This document shows positions 57,669 to 64,000 of a stretch of 64,000 nucleotides of DNA, in pieces. This stretch comes from a virus: IMG/VR virus record IMGVR_UViG_3300029922_000031, positions 41,075-105,074 of that record. One strand, given 5' to 3'. Below the pieces are notes generated by a model, which was not told the DNA's origin, ran no database searches, and saw only the letters and a program-made list of their open reading frames with translations. Within the stretch, counting starts at the first letter, position 1, and each line of letters opens with the position of its first letter. The position numbers were made by a program, and so were the translations under genes.

Positions 57669-58319
57669 ATGCTCAGCATCGCCTGCCTCTCCCAGAAGGG
57701 AGGCGTCGGCAAGTCGACGATCGCTCGACTGATTGCGGTGTCATTTGCCGCATCCAAATGGTCGGTGAAGATCGCCGACTTCAATCTCAAGCAGAAAACC
57801 TCATCGAATTGGGCCGCCACGCGGATGAAGGCCGGCGTCAAGCCGACCGTCGCCGCGGAGGCGTTCGCCAGCGTCAAGAGCGCGCTGGCGCAGGAAGCGC
57901 TCTACGACCTGATGGTGTTCGACGGGCGCCCGGATAGTGACACCGGCTCGCTGGAGATCGCCAAGGCCGCAAACTTGGTTATCTGCCCGCTCGGCGTCAG
58001 CCTCGACGATCTCGAGCCCCAGATCGCCTTCGCCGCGGAGCTGCGCGCCAAGGGCGTGCGGCGGGATAAGATTCGCTTCCTGATCAACAATCCCTACGAC
58101 AGTTCCCTAAGCATCGAGGAAGCCAAGGAACTGATCGCTTCGGCTGGCTTTCAGACCTTTGGAGAGATTCTGCCCGGCCGGCTTAGCTATCAGCAGGCGC
58201 AGAACTTCGGGATGGGCGCTACGGAGACGAACTTCTCGTCGCTGAACGCGCGCGCGGCCGCGCTCGCCGCCGAAATATCCGAGACGCTTGGGCTCTTGAC
58301 CGATGGAGATTCAAAATGA
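57669..58319 (+). CDS. parA: Short (type Ib) ParA partition ATPase
   Basis: SQKGGVGKST deviant Walker A, MVFDGRP, ANLVICP; no N-terminal HTH. Confidence 0.92.
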   Translation: MLSIACLSQKGGVGKSTIARLIAVSFAASKWSVKIADFNLKQKTSSNWAATRMKAGVKPTVAAEAFASVKSALAQEALYDLMVFDGRPDSDTGSLEIAKAANLVICPLGVSLDDLEPQIAFAAELRAKGVRRDKIRFLINNPYDSSLSIEEAKELIASAGFQTFGEILPGRLSYQQAQNFGMGATETNFSSLNARAAALAAEISETLGLLTDGDSK

Positions 58320-58648
58320 ACGACGAGGTCAGCACTGAACACCCGGCCGAACCAGAGAAGAGGGGCATTCGCCCGCCACCGCGCCGGCGCAGCTTGCTCG
58401 AGGCGCGCGAACGGGTCGCTGAACAGCCGGCGCCCGATCATCTGGCGACGCCAACCGACGGCGGCTATCGCAATTTCGTCGATCTCGGCTTCAAGGTCGA
58501 GCCCTGGTTCAAGCGCCGCTACGCGATCGAGGCGGCCTTCCGCGGTCTGAGCAAGAAGGATCTGATGCTGGCCTGCTTCCAGGCGTTTCTGGATGCAAAC
58601 GGCGGGACGATGGAGAAGGCCAAAGCCGACTCAATGGTCGGCGACTAG
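58316..58648 (+). CDS. ParA partner, probable ribbon-helix-helix centromere-binding protein
   Basis: ATGA overlap with parA; flexible N-terminus then VDLGFKV..WFKRRY.IEAA.RGLS.KDL RHH-like pattern. Confidence 0.7.
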   Translation: MNDEVSTEHPAEPEKRGIRPPPRRRSLLEARERVAEQPAPDHLATPTDGGYRNFVDLGFKVEPWFKRRYAIEAAFRGLSKKDLMLACFQAFLDANGGTMEKAKADSMVGD

Positions 58649-63313: not shown

Positions 63314-63816
63314 GGGATGAGGAATACCTCAGTTCGATCGACTTGGCAAGTCAGTTTTGACTGTCGGGACGCGCTGGCCCTGCCCGCCGGGTTGTCTCCC
63401 AACTGAGTGGCAAGGATGCGGTGACAAGGATCTGTAGGTATTCCTGTAGTTTTGGGGCCGAAGTGACAAGGATAGGTTTTGGGTTGGCGAGCAATGGCGG
63501 CATAGCTCCCGAACTGTGGCATTTATATCTAAGACTTGTGTTCTTCCAGCCACAGTGAGTCTAATACGCCACACTGTACGAGAACACAATTCAAACACAA
63601 TCTAAACACAATTGACGCAACGTGTGACTATACCGCCATAGTGAGTCAATTGAGCCATAGTGTGTCCAACCGACCTCACTGTTGCATGAAAGACATGCGG
63701 AATCTTTGTGCAGTGCCATGCAAACTATTTTCGACGCCGCGCTTGCGTTTCGACGCGCAATCGCTACATTCAATCTTGCGACTGATTGAGTCGCGACACG
63801 CAAGAGAGTAATTCAA

Positions 63817-64000
63817 ATGTCTCACAAGCAATTCTCACTGTCTGACTACGCGAACGCAGAGCGCGACGACGCAGAGCGCGACAATGATCTTTTCGACGTT
63901 GCGATTGCGCTCTGCAATGCAAACGACGACGCAGAGCGCGACGACGCAGAGCGCGACGACGCAGAGCGCGACAATCAGTTGTTCGACAATGCGCGCTTGC
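63817..64000 (+). CDS. Acidic AERDD-repeat protein, 3'-truncated
   Basis: ATG 63817 after AAGAGAG; MSHKQFSLSDYANAERDDAERDNDLFDVAIALCNANDDAERDDAERDDAERDNQLFDNARL; upstream CTTGCG-N16-CTACAT promoter-like sequence. Confidence 0.6.
   Translation, partial: MSHKQFSLSDYANAERDDAERDNDLFDVAIALCNANDDAERDDAERDDAERDNQLFDNARL

Follow-up and report, generated by a model that had tools for sequence, protein, structure and literature searches.

In phage T5 the first-step-transfer (FST, or pre-early) DNA is without EcoRI sites, and the rest of the T5 genome has them. The locus analysed here resembles the T5 FST region in that a short, discrete part of a siphovirus-type genome of ~115 kb lacks a sequence common elsewhere in that genome and carries the gene for a small, likely DNA-binding, protein; an array of the palindrome CCATGG beside it could correspond to the injection-stop/binding region, as a positional analogue only. 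It differs in that a 2-bp step, GG or CC, is avoided and three amino acids are lost, as compared with a 6-bp site in T5, in that the unit, which we call the cassette, measures 1–2 kb rather than 10 kb, and in that these elements also live as plasmids. We found no homologues of the T5 pre-early proteins A1, A2, and Dmp, and the cassette proteins matched no PHROG or Pfam family significantly.

At the RNA level, genes free of MazF sites reportedly escape that RNA toxin, and CmdT is said to act at GA in mRNA. The likeness to the cassette is that individual genes without a short word continue to be expressed when other messages have been disabled; however, the constraint in those systems falls on the message strand, whereas the cassette is purged on both strands, in its promoter region, and in its flanks. 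GG and CC are, in addition, the commonest two-letter CRISPR PAMs. Restriction-site avoidance and CRISPR PAM depletion in phages have been described as weak, genome-wide statistical biases (PMC4246573, PMC12174588). They resemble the present case in the loss of a short word, among them the PAMs GG and CC, under a host activity that reads sequence; in contrast, the genomes carrying the cassette have an overall odds ratio for GG/CC of 0.70–0.81 and yet contain one unit with none at all in up to 1,530 bp, and rather than a depletion spread over the genome there is one such unit per genome, all other GG/CC-free runs being 96 bp or less. Finally, the modelled fold of the cassette protein matches winged-helix regulators (MarR, ArsR, PadR, and Fur-type folds) with Z scores of 7–8.4, but the protein has no Pfam, NCBIfam, or PHROGs match and its helical N-terminal domain is unmatched.

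The window, that is, the whole 64,000-nucleotide stretch that we analysed, ends where the single-contig IMG/VR record G000, rated 93% complete and "linear", ends. As the earlier note had stated, its final 262 bp contain neither GG nor CC although their G+C content is 55%; ~40 occurrences were expected from local base composition (P ~5e-17). A 15-nt tandem unit forms two arrays here, but these cover only ~78 of the 262 bp and, therefore, do not account for the absence, so that tens of GG/CC would be expected even when the repeats are discounted. The last CC before this desert lies at 63737–63738, and GG occurs on the plus strand only once after 63520, at 63699. When GG and CC were mapped over the full 105,074-bp contig, as the note had proposed, this was the single desert, and the next-longest GG/CC-free run was 90 bp. 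The desert starts at a repeat-rich junction at which the direction of transcription flips, tRNA-Met and the adjoining ORFs lying on the minus strand and the desert ORF on the plus strand. The 61 visible codons of this ORF include none for Gly, Pro, or Trp, and it is preceded by a GG-free ribosome-binding region, both as first noticed in the note (Table 1).

Table 1. Features of the cassette and its surroundings; positions are those of the window unless a contig is named
Feature	Position	Strand	Basis or remark
GG/CC-free desert, first 262 bp	63739..64000		runs past the contig end
Recoded winged-helix regulator gene, 5' part (61 codons)	63817..64000	+	motifs match the family alignment; predicted fold
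GG-free ribosome-binding region AAGAGAG	63802..63808	+	8 nt 5' of the ATG
Putative promoter: CTTGCG, 17-nt spacer, TACATT	63742..63770	+	reading by eye
Inverted repeat GACTG-ATT-GAGTC	63780..63792		between the putative −10 and the ribosome-binding region; seen in the sequence, possibly operator-like
GAC(T/A)CACT(A/G)TGG, three copies 5' of the cassette	63550..63666	−	local repeats only
DAERD-encoding 15-nt tandem unit, two arrays, inside a 50-nt higher-order repeat	63854..63972	+	repeat analysis
CCATGG arrays	L029 1412–1714 and 2813–2882; L012 13099–14036; L011 13685–15464; L010 14973–15334; L028 15432–15666		

The putative promoter begins 4 nt downstream of the last CC; a consensus promoter scanner gave no call for it. 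Genome-wide, matches to GAC(T/A)CACT(A/G)TGG were not above chance and the three best were all the local copies listed in Table 1; a T7-like promoter reading of GACTCACTATGG was rejected on the same grounds, there being three copies only, all local. At 63583–63615 and 63407–63473, the divergent intergenic region 5' of the cassette also holds AACACAATTCA three times in tandem and GTGACAAGGAT three times. Elsewhere in the window, at 57669–58648, the gene for a small ParA (216 aa) precedes an ORF of 110 aa that has no Pfam match and possibly encodes the centromere-binding partner.

Five metagenome contigs were identical to the window end, and all extended further; an exact-match search of viral contigs gave no match. 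One of the five, L029, overlapped the window end by 498 bp with no mismatches (100% identity) and continued for 4,217 bp beyond it (L029 position = window position − 63502). The note had allowed that GG/CC might return to normal just beyond the window. They did not: the full run without either measured 793 bp (L029 236–1028; window-equivalent 63738 to ~64530) and, after two leaks, one at a CAG|GCG junction and one in a GCC codon, was followed by a further 328 bp free of both (L029 1061–1388). Counting the two leaks, the desert in this phage is thus ~1.15 kb long and spans the putative promoter, a gene of 271 codons, and a terminator. The complete gene (L029 315–1130) encodes a 271-aa protein without Gly, Pro, or Trp, the hairpin terminator is built solely of GCGCGC (L029 1164–1187), and the desert goes on for ~200 bp past it. 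G000 stops 7 nt past the second copy of the 50-nt repeat, and contig L030 stops 89 nt further on; tandem repeats are the likely cause, so we regard position 64000 as an assembly break and not as a DNA end. Circular continuation into position 1 of the contig was ruled out, as GG occurs there as early as position 7 and L029 takes a different course. The other contig end (G000 1–420) is T-rich, of low G+C content, apparently noncoding, and contains repeated CTGAATCTTCGT; as L029 stops short of this end, the genome still lacks more than 4.2 kb, roughly 8 kb in total.

The relatives of this phage belong to the RHEph10/pLM21S1 group of Rhizobiales phage-plasmids, which are 115–117 kb long and carry ParA and RepC. 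The GG/CC-free run over the equivalent gene was shortest in a Shinella plasmid (723 bp), longer in the isolated Rhizobium phage RHph_Y2_11 (887 bp), and longest in the Methylobacterium AMS5 plasmid (1,530 bp), and in each of these three complete genomes it was the only desert, the second-longest run being at most 96 bp. Of 13 viral contigs found via the protein, 12 had the desert over the gene, with flanks of up to ~600 bp upstream and up to ~800 bp downstream; in L026 it reached 350–600 bp upstream. One or two additional small genes also lay inside the desert in some relatives. The cassette gene occurred on either strand relative to ParA, 0.8–7.7 kb from it, and the desert traveled with the gene. 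In three records classed as having direct terminal repeats, the location of the cassette was internal and variable (99.9 kb in a record of 119 kb, 61.2 kb in one of 116 kb, and 26.1 kb in one of 109 kb); as the start points of metagenomic records are arbitrary, these coordinates speak neither for nor against a terminal location. Homologues of rIIA and rIIB were present in the AMS5 plasmid (81863–85799; L038 1863–5799) and in the Shinella and RHph_Y2_11 elements, and were not found in the Methylobacterium oryzae element or in G000 (93% complete).

An element of the (C)AGAGAGA type lay ~7–10 nt 5' of the ATG in most of the 14 lineages in which the start could be assigned, and also in L002. The GG-free start region reads (C)AGAGAGA(C/A)A in this phage and in ~12 relatives; a proposed phage sRNA with an CUCUCUGU seed could pair with start sites of this type.

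Codon order was shuffled in nine independent genes: GG/CC at codon junctions were observed zero times or once, as compared with 27–42 expected, so it is at the nucleotide level that selection acts. Identity between the Shinella and Rhizobium proteins is only 25%, yet both genes have no GG or CC at all. G and C were not lost from the desert but were kept as GC and CG, with odds ratios of 1.6–2.1, arguing for selection rather than deamination. The G+C content was 48–55% in the desert and 60–66% in the genome, P for the desert ranged from 1e-17 to 1e-42 in three genomes, and the genome-wide odds ratios of GG/CC were only 0.70 and 0.81. Both dinucleotides were purged alike on both strands, and the purged DNA included the putative promoter region and the flank past the terminator. 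Palindromes without GG/CC were not avoided: GCGC and CGCG were abundant and at expectation (z −0.2 and −0.6), so that general avoidance of palindromes or restriction sites was not seen. The selection against GG/CC suggested by the note is strong and long-standing, and it starts at the putative promoter of the rightward gene.

The N-terminal 70 aa of the 271-aa protein consist of acidic DAERD repeats. Its 41 close homologues have no Trp in any case, 0–3 Gly, and 0–2 Pro. Searches of Pfam, PHROGs, NCBIfam, and the ESM Atlas with this protein and with the paralogue described below returned no family and no function. In an AlphaFold model (pLDDT 92), the N-terminal half is helical and the C-terminal part is a winged helix, with a helix-turn-helix followed by a β-hairpin wing (H154–170, E174–178, E184–188, and H193–201). 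Model residues 85–205 aligned to many winged-helix domains (Z 7–8.4, rmsd 2–3.5 Å over 72–84 residues), the best matches being domains of the MarR, histone H1, and RosR types at Z 8.0–8.4, a resemblance of fold and not of family membership; Foldseek against the PDB gave winged-helix matches only, all weak, and the helical N-terminal domain had no structural match. Judged by its model, the recoded gene encodes a winged-helix protein of a family not previously described, and the protein likely binds DNA; the predicted fold is a common one, and common arrangements can give a Z of ~8. Comparison by hhalign placed the Shinella and Rhizobium proteins in the same family (probability 98.6% and 92%), to which the full protein of this phage was assigned by motifs. 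Identity of the cassette protein with RepC was ruled out: there was no match to the RP-C domain, and a separate RepC of ~417 aa is encoded at 46.9 kb of G000.

With a family HMM we found two members in every element whose sequence reached far enough. The recoded copy has ~200 aa, with approximately no Gly, Pro, or Trp and approximately no GG or CC per 100 bp; the normal paralogue, located 1.5–3 kb away in tandem or convergent orientation, has ~290–390 aa, 19–35 Gly, Pro, and Trp residues together, and 10–20 GG and CC per 100 bp. In this phage it lies at L029 3185–4351 on the minus strand. As a paralogue of normal composition exists, the fold does not require the odd composition of the recoded copy. 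A search of 1.84 billion cluster representatives yielded a family of 400 members. Among the best 150 of these 400, 50 were poor in Gly, Pro, and Trp (36 had exactly none; median 205 aa) and 88 were normal (median 288 aa), with six changes to or from the poor state on a quick tree of these 150, although shared composition could exaggerate the clustering on which that count depends. The apparently noncoding stretch between the two copies is packed with CCATGG, 6–16 exact copies per 0.6–2 kb as compared with 0.25 per kb elsewhere, often paired at a distance of 10–11 bp, and it is the densest CCATGG cluster in every complete genome. An array of this kind would probably bind protein.

One high-GC Methylobacterium lineage, to which the M. 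oryzae plasmid and contig L013/L018 belong, as UNC378MF probably does, has an ordinary density of GG/CC in the gene (11–15 per 100 bp). PvP062 is a further host of an element without the desert; hosts of desert-bearing elements are AMS5, M. extorquens, Shinella, and Rhizobium. Junction GG/CC in this lineage numbered 34 versus 47 expected, which is near random, and its protein is still poor in the three residues, with two Gly, one Pro, and no Trp. To judge from these sequences, the loss of the desert looks like a recent relaxation of constraint. The M. oryzae element retains both paralogues, the CCATGG array, and the ParB/ABC cluster; only rIIA, rIIB, and two small ORFs are absent from it but common to the three desert-bearing genomes. 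Desert-bearing G000 lacks rIIA and rIIB as well, so no phage gene tracks the desert.

We propose, tentatively and at somewhat less than an even chance, that the cassette is written to evade an activity that recognizes GG·CC steps in duplex DNA. Natural selection keeps free of the GG·CC base-pair step a unit made up of the putative promoter, the GG-free ribosome-binding region, the gene for one predicted winged-helix protein, the GCGCGC terminator, and 45–200 bp of flank, the unit duplicating, in recoded form, a regulator with a normal paralogue 1.5–3 kb off across the CCATGG array. According to our proposal, the activity would act, in the infected or plasmid-carrying cell, on duplex DNA at GG·CC by cutting, modifying, or blocking it, and one site would suffice to disable a gene. 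Finding no target in the unit, it would leave the regulator copy still to be made when templates containing GG/CC, the normal paralogue included, were unusable. That both strands are purged, promoter region and flanks included, and that orientation is irrelevant argue for an action on duplex DNA rather than on the message. The absolute nature of the avoidance suggests that a single site is harmful, which suits cutting, blocking, or modification better than it does PAM statistics.

Several results speak for this escape at the level of DNA: there is one desert per genome in the relatives with runs of 723, 887, and 1,530 bp, and the desert recurs in the 12 viral contigs; codon junctions are almost entirely purged, and zero is kept between proteins of 25% identity; the desert follows the gene when it is inverted relative to ParA; the paralogue pair was present in every complete element examined, with the six changes of state seen among the best 150 members; and the lineage that lost the desert is near random at junctions while its protein is still composed with two Gly and one Pro. 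The paralogue pair suggests one sensitive and one immune copy of the same regulator. Against it, no agent was found: genes of the C5, N4/N6, TGT/DpdA, and QueC families (PF00145, PF01555, PF01702, PF06508) were absent from G000 and four complete relatives under conditions in which positive controls matched, and no phage gene co-varied with the desert. In the literature we found no enzyme with GG/CC-step specificity and no description of a local GG/CC-free gene; for DarT1, a guanine-modifying enzyme, no motif is defined there. The promoter included in the unit is itself only putative, having been read by eye. A nuclease, in particular, would not spare a genome cut elsewhere, and that version needs the extra assumption of staged DNA entry or of expression from a surviving fragment.

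The same absence of a co-varying enzyme, together with the winged-helix fold of the protein, favors an explanation in which the family acts on its own DNA. The paralogues would bind sites containing CC/GG, the CCATGG arrays, and silence nearby DNA, and the recoded gene, being without sites, would never be shut off. In each complete genome the densest CCATGG cluster adjoins the cassette, at the density given above, and the desert accompanies this gene family whichever way the gene is oriented. But a winged-helix protein reads 4–6 bp, and dodging CCATGG or its half-sites need not purge every GG and CC; binding of the paralogues to the array is only putative, and M. oryzae has the array and both paralogues yet no desert. 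We consider this explanation unlikely. It seems to us improbable, too, that the agent acts on RNA, either cleaving single-stranded RNA or modifying its bases where it reads GG and CC, and so disables other messages while that of the cassette escapes. Such an agent would fit a desert that approximates a transcription unit ending near the terminator (the transcript ends being predicted), and CmdTAC reportedly provides a precedent for dinucleotide-specific action on mRNA; however, a single RNA strand does not demand that GG and CC be purged equally, the desert includes the putative promoter and extends 45–200 bp past the terminator and, in L026, 350–600 bp upstream, and no RNase or ADP-ribosyltransferase was identified.

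Evasion of CRISPR or of restriction, which the note had offered as an alternative, would shield a key gene by removing PAMs (CC for type I-F, GG for many type II systems) or restriction sites containing GG/CC. PAM depletion in phages is indeed on record, but in its published form it is weak and genome-wide, whereas the desert is absolute and local, and cuts elsewhere in a 115-kb genome would be equally fatal, so that one safe gene gains little; the hosts, moreover, span four genera, and GCGC and CGCG are not avoided. Evasion fits poorly with one protected gene per 115-kb genome and abundant GCGC/CGCG, and we give it only a small chance. The other model of the note, in which the ParB-ABC(-GNAT) cluster chemically modifies GG/CC in virion DNA and host RNA polymerase first reads the unit left unmodified, fared worse and appears very unlikely. 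A modification that blocks reading would explain a promoter and terminator without GG/CC. But we detected no modification domain in the products of the cluster at 51–55 kb, two ParB_N proteins and an ABC ATPase; no GNAT domain was significant among the eight of its ORFs tested, and neither methyltransferase nor 7-deazaguanine genes occur in the five genomes searched. These three proteins of the cluster (46–69% identity) are, in addition, equally conserved in M. oryzae and in desert-bearing genomes; lacking any co-variation with the desert, the cluster is not supported as the agent. Chance, low complexity, or a local mutational bias such as targeted deamination, acting with no selection, could draw on the tandem repeats in the visible 262 bp and on the lower G+C content of the desert; set against P values of 1e-17 to 1e-42, repeats covering just 78 bp, enriched GC/CG, a conserved protein family, and absolute avoidance at junctions, it is hardly credible.

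One observation is accounted for by no model, including our preferred one of escape from an activity on duplex DNA. In two divergent lineages, L010 and L011, GG is tolerated in the desert solely within TYTKCGGTGY, at 30 sites that lie on both strands, in differing reading frames, and also in intergenic DNA (L011 11298–13345; L010 13700–14968). The exact 8-mer TGCGGTGC is enriched at least 30-fold in these deserts, as estimated from counts. A relative with 78% protein identity has no TYTKCGGTGY site, and no analogue of the CGGTG motif was found in the other deserts.

The forfeiture of three amino acids and the constraint on every codon junction over hundreds of codons, in lineages only 25% identical, imply very strong selection by an agent that recognizes just two bases, and no known enzyme, defense system, or DNA-binding protein accounts for the desert. 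Discovery of this agent could reveal a new mechanism of defense or takeover, or a novel means by which a repressor spares its own gene from silencing. The question is tractable: two Rhizobium phages, RHEph10 and RHph_Y2_11, have been isolated, several relatives reside as plasmids in cultured strains, a lineage with natural loss is available, and every element carries its own control gene of normal composition. In a broader and more doubtful form of our proposal, an undescribed kind of activity that reads a single GG·CC step on duplex DNA would operate in conflicts between phages or phage-plasmids and their hosts, and phages would answer it with a safe-zone unit, here a recoded duplicate of a regulator. 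If so, a GG·CC-reading activity could be widespread, and a regulator kept in one copy sensitive to the activity and one immune to it could act as a built-in switch.
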